Source of the DNA: Escherichia coli
Lineage (GTDB): Bacteria > Pseudomonadota > Gammaproteobacteria > Enterobacterales > Enterobacteriaceae
DNA length: 23,185 bases
Assembly (NCBI GenBank): GCA_022664555.1
Contig: GCA_022664555.1_4839.1
Reading direction: 5' to 3' (one strand)
Position numbers and translations under genes: made by a program. Each line of letters opens with the position of its first letter. The first letter of the stretch is position 1. Below the pieces are notes generated by a model. It searched no databases, was not told the origin of the DNA, and saw nothing but the letters and a program-made list of their open reading frames with translations. Positions 1,511 to 15,463 of the stretch are shown here, piece after piece.

Positions 1511-2080
1511 TCAGCCTTTGAAGTTAATCGGTTTCTGAATACCAGCGTCGAACGCGGCCTGGGTACGGGTATCACTCACCACTTGGCAGGTCTTGTCAAG
1601 GTCGATGCGCGGGTAGCCGAACATGCCAGCAATCAACGAACCAGGGAACTGAGCCAGCTTGGTTTCGTATATTGTGCAGATATCCAGCTTCTTGGTCTGA
1701 CTGATGCGGAATTCATCACGCCCAGAACTGATCACCACCTGGATCTCTTTGTACAGGCTGGAATCGAACTGAATATTCTGCTCCTGGATCCACTGCATGA
1801 CGGCCTTGGAACCATCAGCGCCATAACGCCCTTCGAACGTGCCTTTGATCACTTCCTTCAGGCCGTCTTTATACATGTCAGGAATCTGCGCCGTCTCTTG
1901 AACTTTGAGCGTATAGTTGCTCAGGTAGTTCTCGGAGTCTTTGTTGAACTTCTTGACCTGCTGCTCAGTGCGGTTGAAGTCGTTGAAGTAGCTGATGACT
2001 GTACCGATGCCGAGAATCACTACACCCAGCAAAGCCAAACCAATTATCCAACCTGTTGCAATACCCTTAGATTGAGACAT
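1511..2080 (-). CDS. LemA-family membrane protein (189 aa)
   Basis: N-terminal transmembrane helix (GIATGWIIGLALLGVVILGIGTVI) followed by a soluble domain whose C-terminal segment YETKLAQFPGSLIAGMFGYP matches the LemA signature (Y-N-x-x-I-x-x-F-P-x-x-L-x-A-G-x-F-G-F) as recalled from the family. AGAGGAAG SD 5 nt before the ATG at 2080. Confidence 0.55.
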   Translation of the reverse strand: MSQSKGIATGWIIGLALLGVVILGIGTVISYFNDFNRTEQQVKKFNKDSENYLSNYTLKVQETAQIPDMYKDGLKEVIKGTFEGRYGADGSKAVMQWIQEQNIQFDSSLYKEIQVVISSGRDEFRISQTKKLDICTIYETKLAQFPGSLIAGMFGYPRIDLDKTCQVVSDTRTQAAFDAGIQKPINFKG

Positions 2081-2098
2081 TCTTACTTCCTCTTTTGA

Positions 2099-3106
2099 TT
2101 AAAAATTAAACGGATAACGACGACGGCCACCATTGTACTCCATTCGCTGCAATATGAAAATTGCGGTGAATGGTAAGCAGCCCAGCAGAACAATAACCAC
2201 AACTTCCCAGGTCTTGAGTTCCCGCCACTTCAGGTACTCCATTTCCTTCATCTCAACGCGGTTGTAGCCTTTGGTGATGTTAGCGACAACATCAGCCATG
2301 ACACCGACGCCCATGTCGTGGCCTGTGAGAGTCATGCCATTGCGAGAGTGTAGTTCACGGTTATGCATACCATCAGCGAACGAAGTGCTCTTACCCCAGT
2401 TGATCTTCAGATCTTTGCTGATGTCGGTCACGACGATAACGTCGTTCTTTTTACCACCATCCCAAGCATAGACCAAGCCCTGGAAGTATTCAACTGGCTG
2501 ACCGGATGTCACAACCCAGACGATATTGACCTGACGTGAAGCACCTAATGTTTTCAGAGTATTGTTCAGATAGTCGTTCCAGTATGTGGTCGGTAACGCC
2601 AGGCCGGACACATTCAACACACGAGTGACACGATAGTAGTCATAGACCTCAGGGTACTTGGGAATCTTGTCTTTGAAGCGTTCAGCAAACTGCTGGTCTG
2701 AGCGGGAGAACAGAGAGTCCTTGTTGCCCAGCACATAGTTCATGTAGTAATGCTCACGGGCGGCAGGTTCACCAATCTGAACCTGTGTCCAGCGCGGCGG
2801 TTGACCAAGACCACGGCGGTCAATGCGGTCAATCGTCAGATTACCAACAGTCGTCAGCACATCCCAGTCCACGTCATACGAATGCTCATAACAGGTGCTG
2901 CAATGGCGGGTACGGGTGCAGGACTTACTACTGCCGGAGCCAGAGCACGATGTGGTGTAGTAACAGTTGCATTCATATGAATGCTCACAGCTCACCTCAT
3001 TCCGCTCCTTTGCAGTGACGTACCCGTTCAGGATCTCAATATCCCCTGAACTGCCAAGGGAGAACGCAGCATAAGTCCCCGCCTGAATCAGACACGATAG
3101 CACCAC
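2099..3106 (-). CDS. membrane protein with Cys-rich N-terminal region and TPM-like domain (335 aa); start uncertain
   Basis: Hydrophobic N-terminus, a run of about 10 Cys in 45 residues (CEHSYECNCYYTTSCSGSGSSKSCTRTRHCSTCYEHSY), a segment W-x-GGKKNDVIVVTDISKDLKINWGKS resembling the TPM-domain core (W-x-G-x-K-x-GVLLLV-x-DR-x-IEVGYG), and a C-terminal TM helix (VVVIVLLGCLPFTAIFIL). The track start is a GTG (3106-3104) with only a weak SD. Confidence 0.45.
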   Translation of the reverse strand: MVLSCLIQAGTYAAFSLGSSGDIEILNGYVTAKERNEVSCEHSYECNCYYTTSCSGSGSSKSCTRTRHCSTCYEHSYDVDWDVLTTVGNLTIDRIDRRGLGQPPRWTQVQIGEPAAREHYYMNYVLGNKDSLFSRSDQQFAERFKDKIPKYPEVYDYYRVTRVLNVSGLALPTTYWNDYLNNTLKTLGASRQVNIVWVVTSGQPVEYFQGLVYAWDGGKKNDVIVVTDISKDLKINWGKSTSFADGMHNRELHSRNGMTLTGHDMGVGVMADVVANITKGYNRVEMKEMEYLKWRELKTWEVVVIVLLGCLPFTAIFILQRMEYNGGRRRYPFNF

Positions 3107-3210
3107 TACAATCTCGGTCGATATCTGAGTGTCTTTATGCTAATTGTTATTGTTTTTGTATATCACATATTGTATAGCAAGTACCAATTTCACACCAAAC
3201 TGGATGTAGA

Positions 3211-3429
3211 TCATTTGGATTCACCGACAAGCTGCGCCTTGGTCATCCCAAGGAGTTGATCTTTATGCTCAGGATTGGCACCGTTCTTTAACAACAAATC
3301 CCAACGCTCTTCATGGTACTGTGGGTCCAGTGCTTCATCAAATGTGATGTGGTGGCGGAACATAATAGTTGCCACTGAATGGACACAGTGAGCGATTGCG
3401 CGCTTCATTGTTCGGGTATTCTTGATCAT
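3211..3429 (-). CDS. hypothetical protein (72 aa)
   Basis: Track ORF 3211..3450 trimmed to the ATG at 3429-3427, which has GGAGGGTG SD 6 nt upstream and forms an ATGA overlap with the stop of CDS 3426..3650. Confidence 0.55.
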   Translation of the reverse strand: MIKNTRTMKRAIAHCVHSVATIMFRHHITFDEALDPQYHEERWDLLLKNGANPEHKDQLLGMTKAQLVGESK

Positions 3430-4147: not shown

Positions 4148-5383
4148 TCAGCGTTTCAAGAGTGTCATGAGGTTGACGCTGCTGGACTTCGACTTGTCCT
4201 CAACCTTGCGCACAGGCATCTTCAGGTTCGTACATACCTCGGATGGTTCCCAGCGCGTACCCTTTTGCAGGTGCCAGATATGCAGAGGAACACCAGTCTC
4301 AAAGAACACAGGCATCTTCCACTTCTGGACGCCTGGAACGTGCCCTGCAGGAGCCTTTTCGCACAACAGGGTATCTGGCAGCCAGAGCGAACGGGCTTCC
4401 CAGAGCGCTGCGCAGGAGTATTCAGGCCAGACGCGTTCCATGTAGTCTATCTCATCCCAGGTACGCTCTGCGTCCCACCCGATGTAACGGGTATTCTTCA
4501 GTCGGAAGAATTTCTTCAGCCAACAAGCACCGGAGGTTTCAAAGTTCAGACGGTTGATGAACGTCAGATGCCCAAACTCAGCCACACAATCCTGGAACGC
4601 CTGCTCAAGGTCGGCCTCAAGGATGTCACACTCTTCATCCGTGATAGGACAACCGTTGATCTTTTTCTTCCCGTGTTTAGTCACCCAATCGTCACGGTTG
4701 GATAAGAACGCCGCGCCATTACGGTTGGACTCGCTTCCATCACGATCACGCAGCATGAAGCCAGGGACGTCAATGGTGTATTCGTTTCCGAATACCATGT
4801 TCAGGGCTTCCAGGAAGTTCCAGGCGCTCAGGCGACCGAAGTATTTCCAGGACATCGCCGTGTCCCACAGCTGGGTGAATTGTTCTGTCTTATCGATGCA
4901 CACCAACATCCCACGGAAAGCGTCATATTGAGTACGGCCAGCCAGCCAGTCAATATAGGACTGTACACACGGAATCATCTTGGACTTGCGGTAGCGACAG
5001 TCGGTATCGAATCGCATGCGATCAAAGTTCAGATTATACCAATCAGAGAAGCGCTGCATCTCTTCCTTAGACTGAGGCGGCACAGGGAACTCACTGTAGA
5101 TAGTCCACGGTCCGACAGCGTTATAGCAACAACCCCACAGGAATGCCATCCAGATCTTGCGCTCGACTTTCTGTTCGAGGCTGATGCCTTCAGTGGCTTC
5201 GATCGCATAGTCCATCAGACGCATCTGCTGGTTGTGCTCTTCTGTGTAGGACAGCGCCTCCACCCAAGCCTTGAGCAAGTACATGCGATTCTCAGGCTTG
5301 CGATAATCAACAGCTAGGTCAATCGGGTACTTCCATTCAGCCGGAGGCGTATAGCCCGTCGGCATTTTAGATAAATGATGCAT
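4148..5383 (-). CDS. hypothetical protein, Trp/Cys-rich (411 aa)
   Basis: Long uninterrupted track ORF; ATG at 5383 with GAGGAAG SD. No motif I can assign with confidence. Confidence 0.65.
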   Translation of the reverse strand: MHHLSKMPTGYTPPAEWKYPIDLAVDYRKPENRMYLLKAWVEALSYTEEHNQQMRLMDYAIEATEGISLEQKVERKIWMAFLWGCCYNAVGPWTIYSEFPVPPQSKEEMQRFSDWYNLNFDRMRFDTDCRYRKSKMIPCVQSYIDWLAGRTQYDAFRGMLVCIDKTEQFTQLWDTAMSWKYFGRLSAWNFLEALNMVFGNEYTIDVPGFMLRDRDGSESNRNGAAFLSNRDDWVTKHGKKKINGCPITDEECDILEADLEQAFQDCVAEFGHLTFINRLNFETSGACWLKKFFRLKNTRYIGWDAERTWDEIDYMERVWPEYSCAALWEARSLWLPDTLLCEKAPAGHVPGVQKWKMPVFFETGVPLHIWHLQKGTRWEPSEVCTNLKMPVRKVEDKSKSSSVNLMTLLKR

Positions 5384-5744
5384 CTTTCGCTTCCTCTTCA
5401 GGAGCCACAGCTTCAGGCTCAGGAGCCAGCTGAATATCTTCCGGCTTCACGAACCCCATCGGACGTTCCCACATATCGATAAAGCGACGGTCAGCGGTCA
5501 CGAACCACAGACGGGCTGCAGTGTGAGTCTTACCCGAGATGAACATCTGAGCATTCGTCTGGGTACGGAACGGAGCAGCCTGCAACCACTTGCCGAAGTC
5601 TTTGGACGACGGATTGGCATTCAGCTGGAACTGAGGGATGACGCAGTTCTTTTCAGGAATCAGGCGCACGGCAGTAATGTGCTTGGCGTTTCCGGTGTAG
5701 TCAATCGCGACAGCCACAGCATCGCGAGGGATTTGAATTTTCAT
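5367..5744 (-). CDS. hypothetical protein (125 aa)
   Basis: Track ORF 5367..5879 trimmed to the ATG at 5744 (MKIQIPRD...), which has AAGGAA SD 5 nt upstream and an ATGA overlap with the stop of CDS 5741..5938. Confidence 0.55.
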   Translation of the reverse strand: MKIQIPRDAVAVAIDYTGNAKHITAVRLIPEKNCVIPQFQLNANPSSKDFGKWLQAAPFRTQTNAQMFISGKTHTAARLWFVTADRRFIDMWERPMGFVKPEDIQLAPEPEAVAPEEEAKDASFI

Positions 5745-5938
5745 TTTGGTTCCTTGAATATTTTGTAACCAGCAGCGCCGATAGACATCACCGCGCCAAT
5801 ACAGTACATCACAGTCACGTTCAACTTCTCTGAGGTTGTTAAGTCCAGAGGGGTGAAATGATAGGCTAGGGCAGTGCACATTGAAACGGCTGCCATAACC
5901 AGACCAATGAACAACAGATAATTAGACAACCGTTTCAT
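5741..5938 (-). CDS. small membrane protein (65 aa, two hydrophobic helices)
   Basis: Track ORF 5741..5944 (GTG start) trimmed to the ATG at 5938, preceded by AAGGGGTGA SD. Two hydrophobic segments: LLFIGLVMAAVSMCTALAY and VMYCIGAVMSIGAAGY. Confidence 0.55.
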   Translation of the reverse strand: MKRLSNYLLFIGLVMAAVSMCTALAYHFTPLDLTTSEKLNVTVMYCIGAVMSIGAAGYKIFKEPK

Positions 5939-5940
5939 GA

Positions 5941-6846
5941 TCACCCCTTCTTCATCAGGTCAAGGAGAGAGCGCGACGCTGCCTTCGGTGCTTCTGGCTG
6001 GGCGCTCGCCTTGGTTTTAGTTTTGGATGCCTTCTGCGGCTTCTCAGGCACTCTGTGCGCCAAAGGATCATCACCGCCGACCTCACGGGTCATTGGATTG
6101 GTTTCACAGTAGGCATAAAAATCTTTGATGTCAAGGTTAACCGCGCCGATATCCATCTGATAAGCGATAGCATCCCCGACAACCCAAAGAGGGGCATCAA
6201 ACGGCATGACTGCCAGTTCGCTACGTGGATCCATTTCCCACTCATTCTGAGAAGGTTTTGTATACTCAACATCCTGCCCACTGTACACGTCTGCCAAAAC
6301 GTTCCACCCCAGTGCCAACATTTCGGCCTTCGACTTCTCAAACTCCTTGTAGTAAGATTCGTTGCGCGACCAGCCGGAGTTCCCTGCTTCTTTACCAGAG
6401 CGACCACGGATACGAGCATCGTACTGATAGCGGTCGGGGTACGCAAAGTACAGCAGCGCCAATGATTCAATCGGATAGTTCTTGAACATCCATTCAGGAC
6501 GCCATTTGTCCGATAGCATGAGAGGTTCTCCCTCGCACACCAGAGTGTATCCCTGAACCAACCAGCACTTGATTAGATCACGAGCAATATCGCCTGAGCC
6601 TGTAGCAGCATGGATTGCATCCATTGAAGTCCAGGAAGCCAGGCCGGACTTGTTAGACACGGTGTACTGTCCAACGAAGATTAACTTCAGCTCTCCGAAC
6701 TTCAGGCCAAACGGGCGAGTCTTGTCACCAACGGTGTAGGTCAGTTCGGTAGGCTCCAGCTTAGTGCGCAGCCATTCGATGAACTGGACCACTCTCGTAC
6801 CCTTGCCCGTGGCCGAGGTGCCTTTCACTACAATTATTTTAGCCAT
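5941..6846 (-). CDS. P-loop nucleotide kinase-like protein (301 aa)
   Basis: Walker-A motif near the N-terminus (IIVVKGTSATGKGT, GxxxxGKGT type as in guanylate/nucleoside-monophosphate kinases). GGAGAA SD before the ATG at 6846. No HAD DxDxT motif, so not a T4 Pnk-type fused kinase-phosphatase. Confidence 0.5.
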   Translation of the reverse strand: MAKIIVVKGTSATGKGTRVVQFIEWLRTKLEPTELTYTVGDKTRPFGLKFGELKLIFVGQYTVSNKSGLASWTSMDAIHAATGSGDIARDLIKCWLVQGYTLVCEGEPLMLSDKWRPEWMFKNYPIESLALLYFAYPDRYQYDARIRGRSGKEAGNSGWSRNESYYKEFEKSKAEMLALGWNVLADVYSGQDVEYTKPSQNEWEMDPRSELAVMPFDAPLWVVGDAIAYQMDIGAVNLDIKDFYAYCETNPMTREVGGDDPLAHRVPEKPQKASKTKTKASAQPEAPKAASRSLLDLMKKG

Positions 6847-7525
6847 TTAATATTCTCCAACCGAGACATGTTTTAGCCCTACCTTTCAAGAGATTCGTTA
6901 TATTACCGGAAGGGAGGCCATATTGAAGTTCCATGTCGCATCTTCTTAACTCAACGATGCGACCATCTTTGTGCTGCCATTTGTAAATCTTTTCATCGCG
7001 ACCAGGACCAATGTCTATCAGACCAAGAGCATGCAGCCTCTTCCTAGTTTCCCCTCCACGCGTTTGAGATTCAGAGGAAGGTCTTGGTGGTTTGGGGATC
7101 TTCCCTTCTGACATCAATTTGCTTATAATCTTACCCTTTCTGGCTTGTGCTTCAGGGGTGAGTCTTGGTGGAGGTTTAATCTTACCTTCAGCGATCAAAC
7201 GTTTGCGGGTTGCGGCGCTCTTTGCGGATGACTCTGGCGTGGCCAATGGAGGCTTCCCACCCCCGACGACCATGTTATAACACCACCCAGAGTCAAGGAT
7301 CTCCTGGCAGACCAGTTCAGACTCTATCTGAAGGATAACCGAATCTTTCCCTCGGAACAGAACTTCAAACTTGAACTGGTCTTCACCGTATTTCTTGAAC
7401 GCTCGTTGTAATGCAATGCTCCCCTGACCACACTTATGCTCAGTCAACCGCCTATCCGGTTCTGAGGTGACACCGATATAGAATTTATGATTGACGAGAT
7501 TCGTGATCAGGTAGAGCGACAGCAT
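6839..7525 (-). mobile_element. GIY-YIG homing endonuclease gene (Seg-like, 228 aa)
   Basis: N-terminal LYLITNLVNHKFYIGVTS carries both halves of the GIY-YIG motif, with downstream Arg/Glu catalytic-region residues. The C-terminal half has tandem basic proline-rich repeats (GKIKPPPRLTPEAQARKGK / GKIPKPPRPSSESQTRGGETRKR), consistent with a DNA-binding domain. Overlaps both neighbours (TAATG at 7523-7527; 8 nt with the kinase-like gene). Confidence 0.85.
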
Positions 7526-7830
7526 TACACAGCGTCCTCAATACGCCAGCTCACGCCGCCCAGCCAAGGTGCCCAGAACACAGCAACATGCGGACGACCG
7601 TTTTCTTCAAACTTAACTTTATACTGGTCGTCGAAGTTATAGAAGATTTCATCCGCTTCAGAGCGCTGGCCGATCTTCACCAGTACATCATGAAGAGCCT
7701 TGGCTGCGCCGATAGGAGTCGGAGTCTCCTGCTGGCGAATGAAGTTGTTCACATGGTTAATCACGCCATCCATGTCGCTATCACCGGAACGCTTGTCGGG
7801 GATTTCCCCGAACTTATTCTGATCTTGCAC
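7525..7830 (-). CDS. hypothetical protein (101 aa), GTG start
   Basis: Track ORF; the first codon is GTG with a strong AGGAGGA SD 4 nt upstream. Confidence 0.55.
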   Translation of the reverse strand: MQDQNKFGEIPDKRSGDSDMDGVINHVNNFIRQQETPTPIGAAKALHDVLVKIGQRSEADEIFYNFDDQYKVKFEENGRPHVAVFWAPWLGGVSWRIEDAV

Positions 7831-7839
7831 GATGTCCTC

Positions 7840-8619
7840 CTATCGGACGTATTGATAATGACTAATCAGGCGGTTAACCACTTCAACAATATTGTAATTC
7901 AGGAAGTCGAAGTGATTCTGGCCTTCTACTGGTTTAATATAAAGCATGTCTTCCGAATTCGAAAGATCCAGTTTTTCATAATTGCCCTGAGGAACAAAGA
8001 TGACAAAGATGTTGTTCAGACCACACGGCTCAACATACTTCGGATTGTCATCAATCAGGACATCGCCAGCCAGCATATGCTTTTCGTCGGTGCTGACAAA
8101 CCCGTTGAAGATACCAGGGAACTTATCATAGACAAACTGACGCTTGCTGCGCTCGTGTTCCGGCTCGCACTTCGACACCGCGATGAATTCAACATTGTCG
8201 AAATCTTCAAGCAAGATATCCTTCAGATTTACCAGGAACTCGTAAGCGCCGGGGAGCGGGTTCATCTTGGCGTACAAGTCAGGGCGACGCCACCAGTCCA
8301 TAGGATCGTTACCGCTTGGCACGCGTTGTTTGTGCATCCCCAATTGGACTTCATGGTATAGCCACGCCGGATGCGCACGTTCACGCATCAGAATAGCCAG
8401 GTCGCCAGCATGGGACATATAACACTCTTTGGTAATCGGCTGGAACTGGTATGACTTATGTTCCCCCGTAGCGATAGCAGCGGCGGCGATGTTCTCTTCG
8501 TTGAACCACTGCACCCAAGGGGAGAGGCTGTCGACCAACGTCAGGTCAACATCCACGAGGACGCGATACAGGCCACCGACCTTTGATTTCATATCATAGA
8601 TACAAACCAGGTTGTTCAT
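7840..8619 (-). CDS. 5'(3')-deoxyribonucleotidase-like HAD-family hydrolase (NT5C-like, 259 aa)
   Basis: HAD motif I (VLVDVDLTLVDS), a middle segment (LPGAYEFLV...FIAVSKCEP) and C-terminal AGDVLIDDNPKYVE resembling the NT5C family pattern (VLVDMDGVLAD ... GDLLIDD) as recalled. GAGGAAG SD; ATGA overlap with the downstream gene. Confidence 0.65.
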   Translation of the reverse strand: MNNLVCIYDMKSKVGGLYRVLVDVDLTLVDSLSPWVQWFNEENIAAAAIATGEHKSYQFQPITKECYMSHAGDLAILMRERAHPAWLYHEVQLGMHKQRVPSGNDPMDWWRRPDLYAKMNPLPGAYEFLVNLKDILLEDFDNVEFIAVSKCEPEHERSKRQFVYDKFPGIFNGFVSTDEKHMLAGDVLIDDNPKYVEPCGLNNIFVIFVPQGNYEKLDLSNSEDMLYIKPVEGQNHFDFLNYNIVEVVNRLISHYQYVR

Positions 8620-8957
8620 TTGTCTTCCTCAACTTTATCATAGCCTGTAGCAACACACTGTTCTTCGGTACAATCTGCATACAGAACGACGGAGGCCTGC
8701 TTCACGTAGGTGATGCAGTGGTAAGTTTCGTCTTCCTGGATGGAATCGTCATAGTTGCAGACAGTTTGGAGCGGACCTGGGGTGGCGTTATCCAACGCCG
8801 CATGCGCCTTAATGGTGTCTTCCATCTTGGACACAGCCTGCTCATTGGTGAACGTCGGCGCGTCAAGGTCTACAGTAGAAGCAACGTCCAGAAGGGTGGA
8901 ACACGCAGTGGTAGAGAAAGCCAGAGCGCACACCAGAAGAATCTTATTGAGTTTCAT
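8616..8957 (-). CDS. secreted or lipoprotein-like small Cys-containing protein (113 aa)
   Basis: Track ORF 8616..8966 trimmed to the ATG at 8957 with AGGTGA SD. Signal peptide MKLNKILLVCALAFSTTA followed by Cys; further Cys residues downstream suggest a periplasmic disulfide-bonded protein. Confidence 0.55.
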   Translation of the reverse strand: MKLNKILLVCALAFSTTACSTLLDVASTVDLDAPTFTNEQAVSKMEDTIKAHAALDNATPGPLQTVCNYDDSIQEDETYHCITYVKQASVVLYADCTEEQCVATGYDKVEEDK

Positions 8958-8986
8958 TTCAATCACCTGTTTGTCAAAGGGTTAAC

Positions 8987-9019
8987 AGGGGGAATTATAT
9001 CCCCCTTTGGTTTATTGAA
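8987..9019. terminator. GC hairpin between the DNA polymerase stop and the next gene (terminator or attenuator)
   Basis: AGGGGGA / TCCCCCT stem (8987-8993 / 9000-9006), followed on the plus strand by TTGGTTTATTGAA. The minus-strand U-tract is poor. Confidence 0.4.
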
Positions 9020-12019
9020 TCAACCTTTCTTCTTTTGCATCATGGCAAGAAGGTTCACACGGCGCTTGTGTGACCAGCCGACCACGTCGAGGATAGACTG
9101 AATCGGATCAATGAAGGACTTCTCAAAGGCCGCCTGATAATCCACCCATTTGCCCAGACCAAGCTCCTCGGGGAAGAACTCAGGATATGCAAAGTAATTC
9201 TGGCCGAATGGGTTGCCCGGCTTCAACAACACCATCTGTACCTTATCACCCGACTCGATCATCGGTAGACCCAGATCTTCGTTCTTCTCAACCAGACGGT
9301 TGTAACCCACACAAGCCTTTGCAGCAAAATGAGCACCAGAGATGAACGATCCGTCAGCAGCCACACACTTCTCTATGTCGGACACGCCTGACGCCTTGGC
9401 GATATCGTCTACAGAGAGTTTCATGTACTCCTCTTTGTACTGGGAGATGAGCGTCTGTACTTCCTCTTCGGTGCCGAGTAGGATCTTCTCATAGCACTTG
9501 ACAAGACGCTCACGACACCATTCCGGCGTGGTGGACTTGCGGGCTTCCAGACCTTTGAACTTGATCTTCGGCTTCTCGTACTTGATACCCTCACTGTCGT
9601 ACACGGCCATGGCATACATCTTCTTGGCTCGCCAGACAGCGGCTGACGCAATGACCTCACGCTCCCACACCATGCGCTGTTCAAATCCGTTCATGGTGTT
9701 ACACAGAAGCTGTGCCCACTCATTGGTCTTCGGCTGGTAGTTGTCTTTGATCCATTGGTCGATATTATCAACCATAGCATGATGGTCAGTAACATCAGGC
9801 CACAACTGCTTGACAAGACGCTCAATGCAGATGTAGTTGGAGTCGGTATCCCCTGCGATGACGAAGTCCTGGCCTGTTGTACCACACAGCTTGTTCAGAT
9901 AATCATCGGTGTAACGCTTGTTCCACTTGTTGATCAGCTGACCGGATGTGGTGATGGCTTCGGCAATGTTGAGGTTGAAGTACTCTTTGAACCAGACGTT
10001 TGAGATCGCGCCATAACCTGCGTTCATCAAGATCTTCAGACCTTGCTGTAGGGTATCTTGAGCGACGCCCAGGTCTTCCCACTTCTTCATCACTTCGGTC
10101 AGGGCATCAAGATCAATGTTCTTGTGCTCTTCATACCACTCTGGGTCATAATAGCGAGACTTCATGGCAGACTCAAGATGGAAGTCACCCTTCGACATCT
10201 CTTTACACCAGCCAGCCCACTGCTCATACTTCAGACCCTTAGCTTTCTCTACTTTACGGTCGCTGTAGATACCACGCATGATTTCAGACAGGAACGACAT
10301 CTTCTCGTTGCTGAAGAATTGAACGTTCGGCGTGAACGACACGTTGTAACGGCGCAGGGTTTCAAAGTGGAACTCACCCAGGGCAACCAACTCATCAACA
10401 ACCTGCAGGCGTTCGTCAACCGCACGCAACAGCTTGTCGTGAAGGGCTTTCATCAACCGACGTTTGTGCATCGGCGTTGCCATGTTATTCATCTGAGCAG
10501 CCAGCTCTTCACACATAGCCTCAATGATCTCGCGGCGCTGGTGTTTGTCGCCAACGATAGTCTCTGGACCGAGGTTGTACTGCTGAATGATGTGAGGATA
10601 CAGGGAGTTCAAATCTTCCGAGAAGACCCAGAAGTAGATTCCTGGTGTCACATCCATGACGTATGCACCCTCAAAGTCGGTCGGACCATCGTATACACGC
10701 TGGATCTTAGGCACTACCCCCTTCTCGTACAGGCGATAATAGCACATCGCCAGCCACGGAGCCACAGTGCCCAGACCGTCTTCATAGTTGGACTTGGTGC
10801 GGTACGCAAGGACGAACATCAGCTGGAGCAGACGCAGCTTATGTTCAAGTCGCCATACCAGCTTAACGTCTTTGATACCATATCGGGTGTGTTTGCAGTA
10901 GTCGTTGAAGTACAGATCAAAGAGCGACTTGCTCTCACTGTAGTCCATCTTCTTCTCACCCAGCTCACAATACGCAATCCAGTCAAGAGAGTAGCGTTCA
11001 CGGGTGGTGTACGTGTGTTTCTTGTAGATCTGCATATAATCGAGCATAGGACAGCCCACGAACTGATACGTCGTGATATCGCCCTTCTTATCGCGAATGA
11101 TACGCTTCTTAATGATACCCCAAGGACTCAGACGCGACGTTTCAGCCTCACCCAGAACCTGATTCATGCGCTCAACAAGATAAGGGCTATCAAACGTCTC
11201 AATGTTCCAGCCAGTCCATCCGTCGAACTGACGCTCCGACCAGAAGTCTAGGAACGAGCGCAGCAGATCTTGTTCGGTGGTGAACTCCTGATAAACAACC
11301 TCAAGGCCGCCGATCTCTTTGTCTTCGGTGTCGTATGCGAATTTGTTACGATCTTTGGCACAGGGCATACCCCAGACCATGAACTTATTGGTCGCCATGT
11401 CCTGAAGCTGGATCAGGGTAATGGGGAACGCCGCATTCATGTCTTGGGTGATCTTACCGTTGCTGTCAATGATAGGGAACTTATCAGTGACGTTGTTGCT
11501 GATAAAGGAACTGGGAAAGTGCTCACGGACAAAATCATGGTTGGCCAGAACTTGTTTATGGAAGCGGCGAATGCGCGCCTCATTTCCTTTGAACGTCTGC
11601 TGCTCAATGGTTGGGTGAGGGAATGGACCTTTGGTCATCTTTCCATCTTTCCACCCGGCGGAGAACACTTCGATATCGAGGTTAGCAATATGGATGTTGG
11701 AATAATCCGGCTCAATCTTTCCGGGAAAGCTATGGGCAATGAACTGGTATGCATAATCGGTCTGCCCGTAAATGGCAGCACCCTGGACTTCCTTGTACTC
11801 TTCAAGATAGTTGTCAGCGTCACGCATGGAAGGGAACTGCTTGGCTACCAGGGGTTCATTGAGAAGGCCGACCTTTTCAACATTTGAATAGTCAGCCGTG
11901 GGTAAATAGAGAGTGGGTTCGAATTTCTTTTTCAACAGACGGCGATTACCCATGTCATCTGCAATTCGAATCAACAGGTCATTGCCCCTGCGGGCAACGT
12001 TCGTATAGAAAACGGTCAT
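9020..12019 (-). CDS. 43: family-B DNA polymerase, T4 gp43-like (999 aa)
   Basis: 3-kb track ORF. Exo I motif (ANLDIEVF), polymerase motif A (SEDLNSLYPHII) and motif C (IAGDTDSNYI). The N-terminus (FY...QFPSMRDA) resembles T4/RB69 gp43 as recalled. GGAG SD 6 nt before the ATG at 12019. Confidence 0.95.
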   Translation of the reverse strand: MTVFYTNVARRGNDLLIRIADDMGNRRLLKKKFEPTLYLPTADYSNVEKVGLLNEPLVAKQFPSMRDADNYLEEYKEVQGAAIYGQTDYAYQFIAHSFPGKIEPDYSNIHIANLDIEVFSAGWKDGKMTKGPFPHPTIEQQTFKGNEARIRRFHKQVLANHDFVREHFPSSFISNNVTDKFPIIDSNGKITQDMNAAFPITLIQLQDMATNKFMVWGMPCAKDRNKFAYDTEDKEIGGLEVVYQEFTTEQDLLRSFLDFWSERQFDGWTGWNIETFDSPYLVERMNQVLGEAETSRLSPWGIIKKRIIRDKKGDITTYQFVGCPMLDYMQIYKKHTYTTRERYSLDWIAYCELGEKKMDYSESKSLFDLYFNDYCKHTRYGIKDVKLVWRLEHKLRLLQLMFVLAYRTKSNYEDGLGTVAPWLAMCYYRLYEKGVVPKIQRVYDGPTDFEGAYVMDVTPGIYFWVFSEDLNSLYPHIIQQYNLGPETIVGDKHQRREIIEAMCEELAAQMNNMATPMHKRRLMKALHDKLLRAVDERLQVVDELVALGEFHFETLRRYNVSFTPNVQFFSNEKMSFLSEIMRGIYSDRKVEKAKGLKYEQWAGWCKEMSKGDFHLESAMKSRYYDPEWYEEHKNIDLDALTEVMKKWEDLGVAQDTLQQGLKILMNAGYGAISNVWFKEYFNLNIAEAITTSGQLINKWNKRYTDDYLNKLCGTTGQDFVIAGDTDSNYICIERLVKQLWPDVTDHHAMVDNIDQWIKDNYQPKTNEWAQLLCNTMNGFEQRMVWEREVIASAAVWRAKKMYAMAVYDSEGIKYEKPKIKFKGLEARKSTTPEWCRERLVKCYEKILLGTEEEVQTLISQYKEEYMKLSVDDIAKASGVSDIEKCVAADGSFISGAHFAAKACVGYNRLVEKNEDLGLPMIESGDKVQMVLLKPGNPFGQNYFAYPEFFPEELGLGKWVDYQAAFEKSFIDPIQSILDVVGWSHKRRVNLLAMMQKKKG

Positions 12020-14221: not shown

Positions 14222-15415
14222 TCAGGAAGGGGTGAAGTCGTTTACAGGAACTGTTTCAGGGATAGCCAGCTCAGGGCATGCTGCCTTCATCGACTCGATG
14301 TACGGCTTGCTACCCACAATCCAGAACAGAGTGTTCTCATTGAGCAACTCGGGCTTGTGTTGCTGAACCCAGGTCATGACCTTGCCTTCATAGCGAGGAT
14401 GCAACTCAATATCGCCCCACTGATATTCCATCAGGTCATTATAACGAACCCAATTAGTGGTATGAAGATCCCAATGGTGTACCTCAAAGCGAGGAAGCAC
14501 GACCTCTGGCTCTTCCTTCTGCCTGATACCACTTAGGAGGCCAGCCAGCGAAACGCTCTTAGAGGCATGCTGAAGCTCCTTCTTGCCGTGTACATAGTCT
14601 GGGTTGTCGTGATAGCGACGGGTAAAGTCGACAATGTGCGGCAGATTGGCATGTTTGCCGATGATGCGCAGACGACTCTCGATAAAGTCCAGACGGTTCG
14701 GACCGATGCCAATCAGATACACACGCTTCAGATTAGGCTTCGGATGCATTGCCAGCCCGGTCAGGATGCTTGTGCAAGAGTTGCACGATCCGGCTGGGAT
14801 GATCAGGTCAGTAATGTGATCAGGAATGTTGGCAACCTGCTCGCCACCCAACATATGGAACCCAGCAATGCGCTCAGGGGAGTGGGCTGTATGGTCGAGG
14901 GTGATACCATACTCCAGATAATACGCCTTTGGATTCTGTTGTTCGATCAACTTCTTACAGCGCGGCTGGATGGTGCTGTTGTAACCCGAGCCGACGAAGT
15001 TGAACTCACTACCAAACCAGGCTGACATTACCACCATTTCATGGTTCATACAGGTGGTGGGTTTGGTCGCGCCGAGCACAGTAGTTGTCTTGCCGCCGAA
15101 GTGCCGAGAGACTGCTGTCGCCATAGGGGACTGCGGACTACCAACGACAGTACCATGGATGATGTCAGGGGAGCCTCCGGCCTTGAGGTGCTCAACCATC
15201 AACCAGATGGCCTGGCGGAGTTTGCTGCCATTGATGCCCTGCTTGGCGTTGGCATAGTTAGACAGCGGCGCAAAATAATCTTCACGCTTGAACCAGACCT
15301 GCTGGTTGGTTTCGGGATTGACGACAAGTTCGCACGGGGTGTGCTTGTAGAGATAGTCTTCCCAGTGAACCAGATTGCGGTCGAGGGAAAGGGTATCGAA
15401 AATGGTCTTGTTCAT
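14222..15415 (-). CDS. PLP-dependent enzyme, ACC deaminase / D-cysteine desulfhydrase-like fold (397 aa)
   Basis: Track ORF 14222..15436 trimmed to the ATG at 15415 (GGAGA SD, spacing 7). WFKREDY...GINGSKLRQAIWLMVEHLKAGG...IIHGTVVGSPQSPMATAVS matches the pattern YIKRDD...GGNKLRKLEFLV...LIT.GAIQSNH of that family as recalled, including the candidate PLP-binding Lys. Confidence 0.55.
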   Translation of the reverse strand: MNKTIFDTLSLDRNLVHWEDYLYKHTPCELVVNPETNQQVWFKREDYFAPLSNYANAKQGINGSKLRQAIWLMVEHLKAGGSPDIIHGTVVGSPQSPMATAVSRHFGGKTTTVLGATKPTTCMNHEMVVMSAWFGSEFNFVGSGYNSTIQPRCKKLIEQQNPKAYYLEYGITLDHTAHSPERIAGFHMLGGEQVANIPDHITDLIIPAGSCNSCTSILTGLAMHPKPNLKRVYLIGIGPNRLDFIESRLRIIGKHANLPHIVDFTRRYHDNPDYVHGKKELQHASKSVSLAGLLSGIRQKEEPEVVLPRFEVHHWDLHTTNWVRYNDLMEYQWGDIELHPRYEGKVMTWVQQHKPELLNENTLFWIVGSKPYIESMKAACPELAIPETVPVNDFTPS

Positions 15416-15423
15416 TCTATTTT

Positions 15424-15463
15424 CTCCTGTAGACATTGGTTTATCATAGTGTATCTACAGGAG
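15424..15463 (-). promoter_or_regulatory. 10-bp inverted repeat that sequesters the SD of CDS 14222..15415
   Basis: CTCCTGTAGA (15424-15433) and TCTACAGGAG (15454-15463) are perfect reverse complements separated by 20 nt. On the mRNA the 3' arm contains the GGAG SD; the upstream in-frame ATG at 15436 lies in the loop. Confidence 0.45.

Follow-up and report, generated by a model that had tools for sequence, protein, structure and literature searches.

Among the closest known relatives of the element considered here are I-TevI and the SegA to SegG proteins of phage T4, homing endonucleases with an N-terminal GIY-YIG domain of about 90 amino acids (aa), a Tyr/Tyr/Arg/His/Glu/Asn residue set, and a modular tail ending in a helix-turn-helix, whose genes lie between conserved phage genes, are patchily distributed, and show co-conversion of their flanks. 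We have analyzed a gene that resembles them in all of these respects, found in a 23,185-nucleotide (nt) stretch of DNA (the window) from an Escherichia coli assembly (GCA_022664555.1), where it separates a DUF7254 gene from a kinase gene. Its product matches I-TevI and the Seg proteins in the catalytic domain only, with about 26 to 40% identity, and, unlike I-TevI, it has three helix/Pro-linker repeats, has no Zn-finger linker evident in the model or the sequence, and is not intron encoded. Another difference from I-TevI and the Seg proteins would be the target gene, a kinase devoted to DNA hypermodification. Much closer are Shigella phage Ag3 orf00242 and its orthologues in AV101, ChubbyThor, pertopsoe, PWKp5, and XF4, which share 88 to 99% identity with the window enzyme, its length of 228 aa, and its position between DUF7254 and the kinase. 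It is an ordinary free-standing homing element, which public annotations of relatives have called SegD-like since the description of phage Ag3.

The reference system for the neighboring kinase is phage ViI, in which gp243 moves a phosphate from ATP onto the 5-hydroxymethyl group of 5-hydroxymethyldeoxyuridine (hmdU) in DNA (Lee et al., PMC8989533). In the same phage, gp247 is a serine:DNA transferase and gp226 a pyridoxal phosphate (PLP)-dependent decarboxylase, the product is 5-aminoethoxymethyldeoxyuridine (5-NeOmdU), and the pathway has been rebuilt in vitro (PMC5889632, PMC8989533). The window resembles ViI in these three genes (82%, 89%, and 91% identity, respectively) and in their order, and differs from it at the junction upstream of the kinase, which in ViI is empty and without endonuclease, while the window kinase has a recoded 5' end.

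The comparison of this junction among relatives leads us to conclude that the endonuclease gene is very probably a 679-bp insertion at the TAATG sequence in which the DUF7254 stop and the kinase start overlap, a mobile passenger beside the 5-hmdU DNA kinase in a conserved block of replication and DNA modification genes. The features of the locus are the following.

5941..6846, minus strand: 5-hmdU DNA kinase (HMUD2), orthologue of ViI gp243 (Pfam PF18747, E 7.8e-151; 82% identity to ViI orf00243)
6784..6846, minus strand: kinase nt 1 to 63, including the P-loop codons (6796-6825), the putative co-conversion tract and immune target half-site (junction alignment, 30-nt windows, Fisher tests)
6839..7525, minus strand: free-standing GIY-YIG homing endonuclease gene, 228 aa, ATG start (Pfam, PHROG, AlphaFold2 [AF2] model)
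6842..7000, minus strand: C-terminal beta-beta-helix-turn-helix domain of the endonuclease, aa 176 to 228 (AF2 secondary structure)
6847..7522, minus strand: segment inserted relative to phages without the homing endonuclease gene, 679 bp with a 4-nt AATG ambiguity at its ends (blastn against LHE287)
7010..7255, minus strand: three basic helix/Pro-linker repeats, aa 91 to 172, putative DNA-binding modules (AF2 helices 97 to 112, 124 to 139, and 151 to 166)
7262..7525, minus strand: GIY-YIG catalytic domain, aa 1 to 88 (aligns with I-TevI residues 5 to 60; Foldseek 1mk0/1ln0)
7525..7830, minus strand: DUF7254 gene (Pfam DUF7254, E 5e-51)

In a blastn alignment of the window with phage LHE287, homology stops at 6847 and restarts at 7523. 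LHE287 has an empty junction, as do SW16-7, EspM4VN, SKML-39, MK-13, ViI, and Menlow, with the stop codon of DUF7254 overlapping the kinase ATG as TAATG; the comparison with endonuclease-less phages that a first reading of the window from its sequence alone (the sequence-only reading) had called for thus fixes the insertion point at this overlap. In the window, the stop codon of DUF7254 overlaps the endonuclease start, whose ATG (7525-7523) shares one base with it, again as TAATG. At the other end, kinase codons 2 and 3 (GCT AAA) give the endonuclease its stop codon, a TAA (6841-6839) formed inside them (ATGGCTAA). The gene therefore overlaps both neighbors, as the sequence-only reading had noted, with 1 nt in common with DUF7254 and 8 nt in common with the P-loop gene. 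As the sequence shows, the expression signals are kept through the insertion: the endonuclease takes over the ribosome-binding site of the kinase, GAGGA, 9 nt ahead of its own ATG, and the 3' end of the endonuclease gene gives the kinase a new one, GGAG, at a distance of 8 nt from the kinase ATG.

The identification of 6839..7525 as a GIY-YIG gene holds at every level at which we examined it. The open reading frame (ORF) matches Pfam GIY-YIG PF01541 with 33.4 bits (cutoff, 22.6; E 5.8e-8) and PHROG 19446, annotated as homing endonuclease, over its full length (E 1e-103); the match to the group I intron endonuclease family TIGR01453 (48 bits) lies under the family cutoff of 56. An AF2 model built from a 12-sequence alignment (pLDDT 79.6) was placed by Foldseek on the I-TevI catalytic domain (1mk0/1ln0) with a probability of 1.0, a target TM score of 0.67 to 0.72, and a root mean square deviation of 2.7 to 3.0 Å, and the residues Y5, Y16, R26, H30, E68, and N84 are unchanged in 12 homologues. 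The ORF is thus predicted to encode an intact endonuclease with an I-TevI-like fold. It is also intact in the nine carrier loci that were fetched and checked directly, and in the 40 carrier records described below tblastn recovers it in each as one uninterrupted piece covering at least 99% of the protein. The ratio of nonsynonymous to synonymous substitution (dN/dS) against orthologues is 0.05 to 0.17, which indicates purifying selection.

A tblastn search with the concatenated DUF7254 and kinase proteins found 350 kinase-bearing phage records. Most of the 60 records in an evenly spread sample had spans of 1.1 to 1.2 kb, that is, empty junctions. At a family threshold of at least 50% identity, the endonuclease occurs in 40 of the 350, a count that includes a few RefSeq/GenBank duplicates, with one copy per record. 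It is annotated beside the kinase in all listed rows except one (Vibrio phage 207E48.1), and the adjacency was seen directly in the nine fetched loci. Carriers comprise six phages of the Agtrevirus group, the Limestonevirus phages XF4 and Coodle, five Kuttervirus phages, four Taipeivirus phages, and 18 Vibrio phages. Close relatives without the endonuclease exist, and the presence/absence polymorphism is confined to one locus. The relatedness of the gene is also out of step with that of its neighbors, since the window and the Kuttervirus phage pertopsoe share 95.6% identity in the endonuclease against 78% in DUF7254 and 82% in the kinase. Taken together, the distribution points to a polymorphic, mobile insertion at one fixed site that is scattered over genera.

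The first codons of the kinase appear to move with the inserted gene. Between carriers and non-carriers of the same genus (pertopsoe/ViI, PWKp5/Menlow, ChubbyThor/MK-13, and window/LHE287), kinase nt 1 to 63 show 15 to 19 differences in 63 positions with only 1 or 2 amino acid changes, against a divergence of 1 to 14% over nt 64 to 540 (Fisher p, 1.6e-3 to 1e-12). Across subfamilies, non-carriers (ViI versus MK-13 or EspM4VN) differ at 2 to 3 of the 63 positions and by about 12% over nt 64 to 540, and carriers (pertopsoe versus the window, ChubbyThor, and XF4) at 0 to 1 of the 63 and by 9 to 26%. In the Taipeivirus pair, PWKp5 and Menlow, the divergence does not extend beyond about 90 nt on the upstream side and about 60 nt on the downstream side of the insertion.

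The P-loop codons themselves occur as three DNA alleles, which differ within kinase nt 24 to 42 and hardly alter the protein: the conserved allele of non-carriers, S (AAAGGAACCAGCGGCACGGGTAAA), the R1 allele of the window type (AAAGGCACCTCGGCCACGGGCAAG), and the R2 allele of the A221/Ag3 type (AAGGGAACAAGTGGCGTGGGTAAG). R1 and R2 are each paired with one variant of the endonuclease, the two variants differing mainly in repeats 2 and 3 of the protein; over this part (7006-7205), the window and the A221/RPN242/Ag3 variant are 67 to 69% identical, compared with 93 to 100% in the rest of the gene, which makes it the hypervariable part that sets the two variants apart. Compared with its Ag3-group orthologues, the window is peculiar in that it combines an AV101/ChubbyThor-type endonuclease, with the repeats of that type, and an R1 tract with a kinase backbone of the A221/RPN242 type, and it is therefore a recombinant. 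In Vibrio phage D503, a decayed piece of a kinase 5' end (LKGTCGTGKI*), no longer in frame, is found at 1761-1793, between the upstream gene and the endonuclease gene. It seems to represent the former P-loop segment, which stayed in place as an endonuclease cassette came in with its own kinase 5' end, and it puts the recombination joint of this phage just after the P-loop codons.

From these patterns we infer that what moves is the endonuclease gene and, with it, some 60 nt of recoded kinase. In a co-infection with an endonuclease-less relative, the enzyme would cleave the allele that lacks the insertion, at the DUF7254/kinase junction or close to it; the most probable place is the stretch of about 60 nt with which the kinase gene begins, where the P-loop codons lie. 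Repair of the break with the endonuclease-carrying genome as template would then bring over the endonuclease gene, about 30 to 90 nt of the sequence ahead of it, and a stretch of recoded kinase no shorter than 63 nt. Carriers would be immune because the insertion divides their site in two and the downstream half has been recoded by synonymous changes. That the target consists of the junction plus the P-loop segment of the S allele is, in our judgment, somewhat more probable than not. The kinase, the transferase, and the PLP enzyme would meanwhile make 5-NeOmdU, and the endonuclease would take no part in this chemistry and merely travel along. An I-TevI-type CNNNG cleavage motif at kinase codons 2 and 3 (CAAAG) was also considered; it is present in some empty alleles and was not used as evidence because it is absent from LHE287.

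Several points weigh against this picture. We infer the activity of the enzyme, its target site, and the immunity of carriers from comparing genomes, and the recoded tract could merely hitch-hike without being the recognition site. SW16-7 and SKML-39 have no endonuclease yet carry the carrier-type kinase 5' end (the first 50 nt or so), including GCT AAA, and the linkage between allele and endonuclease is therefore imperfect; their 5' ends look like footprints and suggest that the endonuclease gene was precisely lost or that co-conversion took place without it. The endonuclease genes of the window and pertopsoe are separated by a synonymous distance of about 0.30, so the transfer from subfamily to subfamily was not very recent. 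The DNA of these phages is hypermodified in vivo, which bears on whether the endonuclease can cut it. Finally, no promoter or terminator of its own flanks the gene, where sigma-70-like and terminator-like sites are no commoner than in shuffled sequences, and no stable hairpin covers the endonuclease start, where the fold is not more stable than that of shuffled sequence (z = +1.0).

The alternative that survives best, unlikely in our view and still a serious one, holds that the recoded kinase nt 1 to 63 are not the target or immunity determinant and represent a neutral hitch-hiker or an adaptation of translation initiation to the changed sequence upstream, with cleavage taking place elsewhere. 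Free-standing T4 endonucleases often cut away from their own gene, SegF and SegG by hundreds of base pairs, early codons influence initiation, GCT AAA is needed simply for the endonuclease stop, and the tract exists without the gene in SW16-7 and SKML-39. What such a tract would not lead one to expect is three alleles that differ in nt 24 to 42 while the protein stays nearly constant, each carrier allele being paired with one repeat variant, nor a joint just after the P-loop codons in Vibrio phage D503. The non-carrier allele is, moreover, unusually conserved across subfamilies (2 to 3 of 63), as expected for a recognized site.

A very unlikely alternative is that the endonuclease is no longer mobile and has become a domesticated or resident nuclease that, for example, excludes or degrades the DNA of co-infecting relatives without copying itself. 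Nuclease use without self-copying has been reported for some T4 seg and mob genes, and the strong purifying selection, the single uninterrupted tblastn piece in each of the 40 records, and the sizeable synonymous distance between subfamilies (about 0.3) would suit a resident gene. Purifying selection is expected of active homing elements too, however, and domestication leaves unexplained the patchy occurrence over at least five genera with close relatives lacking the endonuclease, a flanking 63-nt tract with 0 to 1 differences across subfamilies, and a similarity of the gene that is discordant with that of its flanks.

The same junction has been occupied more than once. In PC3, YX22, vB_CECAV_050, most Dickeya Limestonevirus phages, Klebsiella phage KpS110, and Salmonella phage PMBT18, it holds a SegB-like GIY-YIG domain of about 235 aa, F-LimXI, which has 35% identity to T4 SegB over about 126 residues and 26% to the window enzyme over 77 aa. 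F-LimXI, known from Dickeya phage LIMEstone1 and with homologues in PC3, YX22, and KpS110, is like the window gene a GIY-YIG element that starts on the DUF7254 stop of the same junction and is patchily distributed, and unlike it belongs to the SegB-like lineage and is fused in frame to the kinase. It begins on the DUF7254 stop and continues into the kinase as an ORF of 531 to 532 aa (in Escherichia phage PC3 from the TAATG at the DUF7254 stop; in Dickeya phage Kamild at locus 1802-3398), the fused kinase having about 50% identity to that of the window. In public annotations the ORF begins only at an internal ATG and thereby loses its GIY motif, and F-LimXI is listed as free-standing in the LIMEstone paper (PMC3296691). 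A GAGGA lies 10 nt before the internal Met just ahead of the P-loop, and a separate kinase could also be made from the fusion ORF.

At a threshold of at least 60% identity, the F-LimXI-type element occurs in 29 records, patchily across genera. PC3 and the window are 96 to 99% identical on both sides of the locus with no DNA similarity detected from 6067 to 7522; the whole cassette has therefore been swapped. Even a single species, Limestonevirus limestone, includes phages with the SegD-like gene (XF4 and Coodle) and phages with the fusion (Kamild and LIMEstone1). In Vibrio phage K356, an HNH endonuclease gene (1673-2227) lies between the NT5C-like and DUF7254-like genes, about 300 bp upstream of the GIY-YIG site, and is a third type of endonuclease insertion at the locus. 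The proposal that the endonuclease marks an insertion hotspot is thus borne out by the presence/absence polymorphism, by a second, unrelated GIY-YIG element at the same junction, and by the HNH gene nearby in a Vibrio relative. Longer junctions also occur in the more distant Ackermannviridae phages CRW-SP2 (1749-2066) and Erwinia phage Bue1 (1732-2083), where an unrelated ORF of about 105 aa stands between DUF7254 and the kinase; it shows no similarity to the endonuclease, and we ruled out that it is a remnant of it.

A more ambitious version of the target proposal, which we put forward tentatively and with some doubt, is that 20 to 60 nt of the kinase P-loop region are the recognition and cleavage site of the endonuclease and the object of a three-way contest among a sensitive allele, two recoded alleles, and the fused SegB-like rival. 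If true, homing endonucleases would drive allelic replacement and horizontal exchange of a hypermodification gene between Ackermannviridae subfamilies, and the SegB-like fusion could be a bifunctional nuclease-kinase that moves a whole, 50%-diverged kinase along with it. The locus also indicates that homing shuffles a DNA modification gene between phage genera, and it provides a natural series for studying the site choice of GIY-YIG enzymes and the movement of their flanks, with an empty allele, two variants, a fused rival, and apparent footprints of loss. In the literature searched, we did not find described the insertion site to the base pair, the linked recoded P-loop tract, the two endonuclease variants, or the in-frame fusion. 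The new content is modest, consisting of the insertion site, the gene-linked recoded P-loop tract across subfamilies, the two variants, and the rival fusion; the element is ordinary, and the general picture of homing endonucleases is unchanged.

The part of the enzyme beyond the catalytic domain is probably a DNA-binding tail. The AF2 model lays out the protein as GIY-YIG (aa 1 to 85), three helices with KPPP-type linkers, and a beta-beta-helix-turn-helix (180 to 225). The three helices correspond to a Lys/Arg- and Pro-rich unit of about 27 aa that is repeated three times in tandem over approximately aa 91 to 172, the copies having 41 to 48% mutual identity, counted from the sequence. The repeats exist at the protein level only, as Tandem Repeats Finder found no DNA-level tandem repeats in the endonuclease gene. 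The motif P-P-x-x-S/T-x-E-x-x-x-K/R-x-G/A-x-T-R-K-x-L-x-x-x-G is kept in homologues down to 50% identity, one of which has a fourth copy. After I-TevI, the next Protein Data Bank (PDB) match of the model is I-HmuI on DNA (1u3e; Foldseek probability, 0.94), and Pfam I-HmuI_NUMOD-like matches weakly at aa 203 to 223 (E 0.059); no PDB sequence match was found for the 141 residues of aa 88 to 228.

The basic, proline-rich tandem repeats that the sequence-only reading saw in the C terminus are therefore present, in three copies. That they are unusual could not be upheld: they are conserved helix/Pro-linker modules, and because the tail has the usual modular DNA-binding layout of phage GIY-YIG and HNH homing enzymes of the I-TevI and I-HmuI type, they are no oddity. 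They share S-x-E-x-x-x-K/R with the NUMOD3 motif, with a helix about 5 residues longer. No match of the repeats to NUMOD3 (PF07460) was listed even at E ≤ 10, in a search whose HMMER filters drop most weak matches. With neither a profile match nor a PDB sequence match, the repeats are called NUMOD3-like here, short of membership in the family.

The P-loop gene downstream of the insertion matches Pfam HMUD2 (5-hmdU DNA kinase 2) end to end, with 501.8 bits and aa 1 to 300 aligned on profile positions 1 to 298 of 298. Its Walker A P-loop is intact, reading GTSATGKGT at aa 9 to 17 where ViI has GTSGTGKGT. By analogy with the ViI orthologue, the window kinase is expected to phosphorylate 5-hmdU in DNA. 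Two further genes of the pathway lie in the window, as follows, so that it holds three genes of the thymidine hypermodification pathway.

4148..5383, minus strand: amino acid:DNA transferase (ADDT/aGPT-Pplase2), 411 aa, gp247 orthologue (Pfam ADDT, E 1.3e-59; 89% identity to ViI orf00247 over 317 aa)
14222..15436, minus strand: PLP-dependent enzyme, gp226 orthologue (91% identity to ViI orf00226; PALP, 28.3 bits, under the cutoff)

The profile searches against the dNMP kinase, polynucleotide kinase (Pnk), and guanylate kinase families that had been proposed for the kinase-like protein led instead to this unrelated family. No Pfam match to polynucleotide kinase or dNMP kinase families was found at E ≤ 0.1, and NCBIfam gave nothing; with HMUD2 matched over its full length and the activity of ViI gp243 described in the literature, an identity as T4 Pnk, dNMP kinase, or guanylate kinase is out of consideration. 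The guanylate kinase label attached to the family (PHROG 4409, RefSeq) is an annotation artifact. Here and in many related records, what is labeled guanylate kinase or hypothetical is the 5-hmdU DNA kinase of the hypermodification pathway; several records wrongly call the kinase homing endonuclease F-LimXI, a name carried over from annotations of the fused allele.

Two records deserve mention for the state of this gene. In Salmonella phage P46FS4, a one-base deletion in kinase codons 15 to 18 (GGGAAAGG-TACG) truncates the kinase ORF, and the annotated coding sequence has 693 nt; either the sequencing was at fault or the suspected target does bear a lesion in this phage. Loss of the kinase might be tolerated, given that a paralogous kinase (gp67) exists in ViI. 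In the record of Escherichia phage A221 (locus 2694-3425), the endonuclease gene is unannotated and the kinase coding sequence is shortened to 852 nt, with DNA 96.6% identical to that of the window.

One gene beyond the endonuclease, the sequence-only reading had placed a phosphatase of the HAD/NT5C type, which the searches support.

7840..8619, minus strand: NT5C-like HAD phosphatase with D23-x-D25-x-T27 and D190-D191 motifs and an inserted cap region (Pfam NT5C PF06941)

The Pfam match (35.5 bits; cutoff, 24.8) aligns aa 109 to 198 only. A phmmer search matched 3bwv and the human mitochondrial deoxyribonucleotidase dNT-2, with only aa 106 to 199 aligning significantly. As in these NT5C 5'(3')-deoxyribonucleotidases, the window protein has the HAD motif I DxDxT/V and LIDD(N/R)P: D23-V-D25-L-T27 aligns to the DMD of 3bwv and dNT-2, and L-I-D190-D191-N-P to LIDD(N/R)P. 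Unlike them, it has an insertion of about 60 aa after motif I, and the significant alignment is limited to the residues given above. DUF7254 and the kinase follow this gene in every Ackermannviridae locus that we examined, those of Vibrio phages included, where its identity is 29 to 30% (E 1e-16 to 1e-18). The papers on thymidine hypermodification (PMC8989533, PMC5889632) make no mention of a nucleotidase, and the word phosphatase appears in them once, in a methods context unrelated to phage genes. We can only speculate that the protein biases the dTMP/dUMP pools toward incorporation of hmdU.

T4 Pnk joins a P-loop kinase with a DxDxT HAD phosphatase, and the sequence-only reading had been reminded of it by the two genes here. 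The idea that the window encodes the two Pnk activities, for the healing of nucleic acid ends, as separate genes with the endonuclease between them is so improbable that it can be set aside, as the likeness goes no further than a superfamily-level resemblance of two genes with intact motifs encoded close together, while the kinase is HMUD2 end to end with a ViI orthologue that acts on the hmdU base in DNA (its substrate being a nucleobase hydroxymethyl group and not a 5'-OH end), the phosphatase matches NT5C deoxyribonucleotidases and no Pnk 3'-phosphatase family, HMUD2 and NT5C are the only Pfam families found for the two proteins at E thresholds from ≤ 0.1 to 10, and DUF7254 separates the two genes in every relative examined. 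With the HMUD2 identity of the kinase, the idea of a split T4 Pnk falls.

As to its origin, the 5-kb region around the locus is 96 to 97% identical to Escherichia phages A221, AV101, and vB_EcoM-RPN242 and has weaker matches in 283 phage records, whose host names include Salmonella, Klebsiella, Escherichia, Dickeya, Serratia, Shigella, and others. The relatives whose records were opened are all Ackermannviridae by classification or share the gene block of the window. The window is thus a piece of an Agtrevirus-like Ackermannviridae phage genome, that is, lytic-phage DNA inside a bacterial assembly. From 4148 to 12019 every gene is on the minus strand; in coding order, these are the DNA polymerase, DUF7292, the NT5C-like HAD phosphatase, DUF7254, the GIY-YIG ORF, the P-loop kinase, a small membrane protein, a PHROG 4163 protein, and the 411-aa transferase. 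Leaving the GIY-YIG ORF aside, this block, from the DNA polymerase through the 5-hmdU DNA kinase and two small genes to the serine:DNA transferase, is conserved across Ackermannviridae. Among the remaining ORFs of the window, neither Pfam nor PHROGs revealed a further endonuclease gene. The members of the block that have not been listed above are these.

9020..12019, minus strand: family B DNA polymerase, head of the conserved block (Pfam DNA_pol_B and exonuclease domain)
8616-8966, minus strand: DUF7292 gene (Pfam/PHROG assignment)
5741-5944, minus strand: small membrane protein (family assignment by Pfam/PHROG searches)
Between the small membrane protein and the 4148-5383 gene, minus strand: PHROG 4163 protein (PHROG match)

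The top sigma-70-like promoter match of the region (10 of 12 positions) lies at 9023-8994 on the minus strand, between the DNA polymerase gene and DUF7292. This promoter-like site precedes the block as a whole and could drive all of its genes from DUF7292 on, past the kinase, as far as the ADDT gene.

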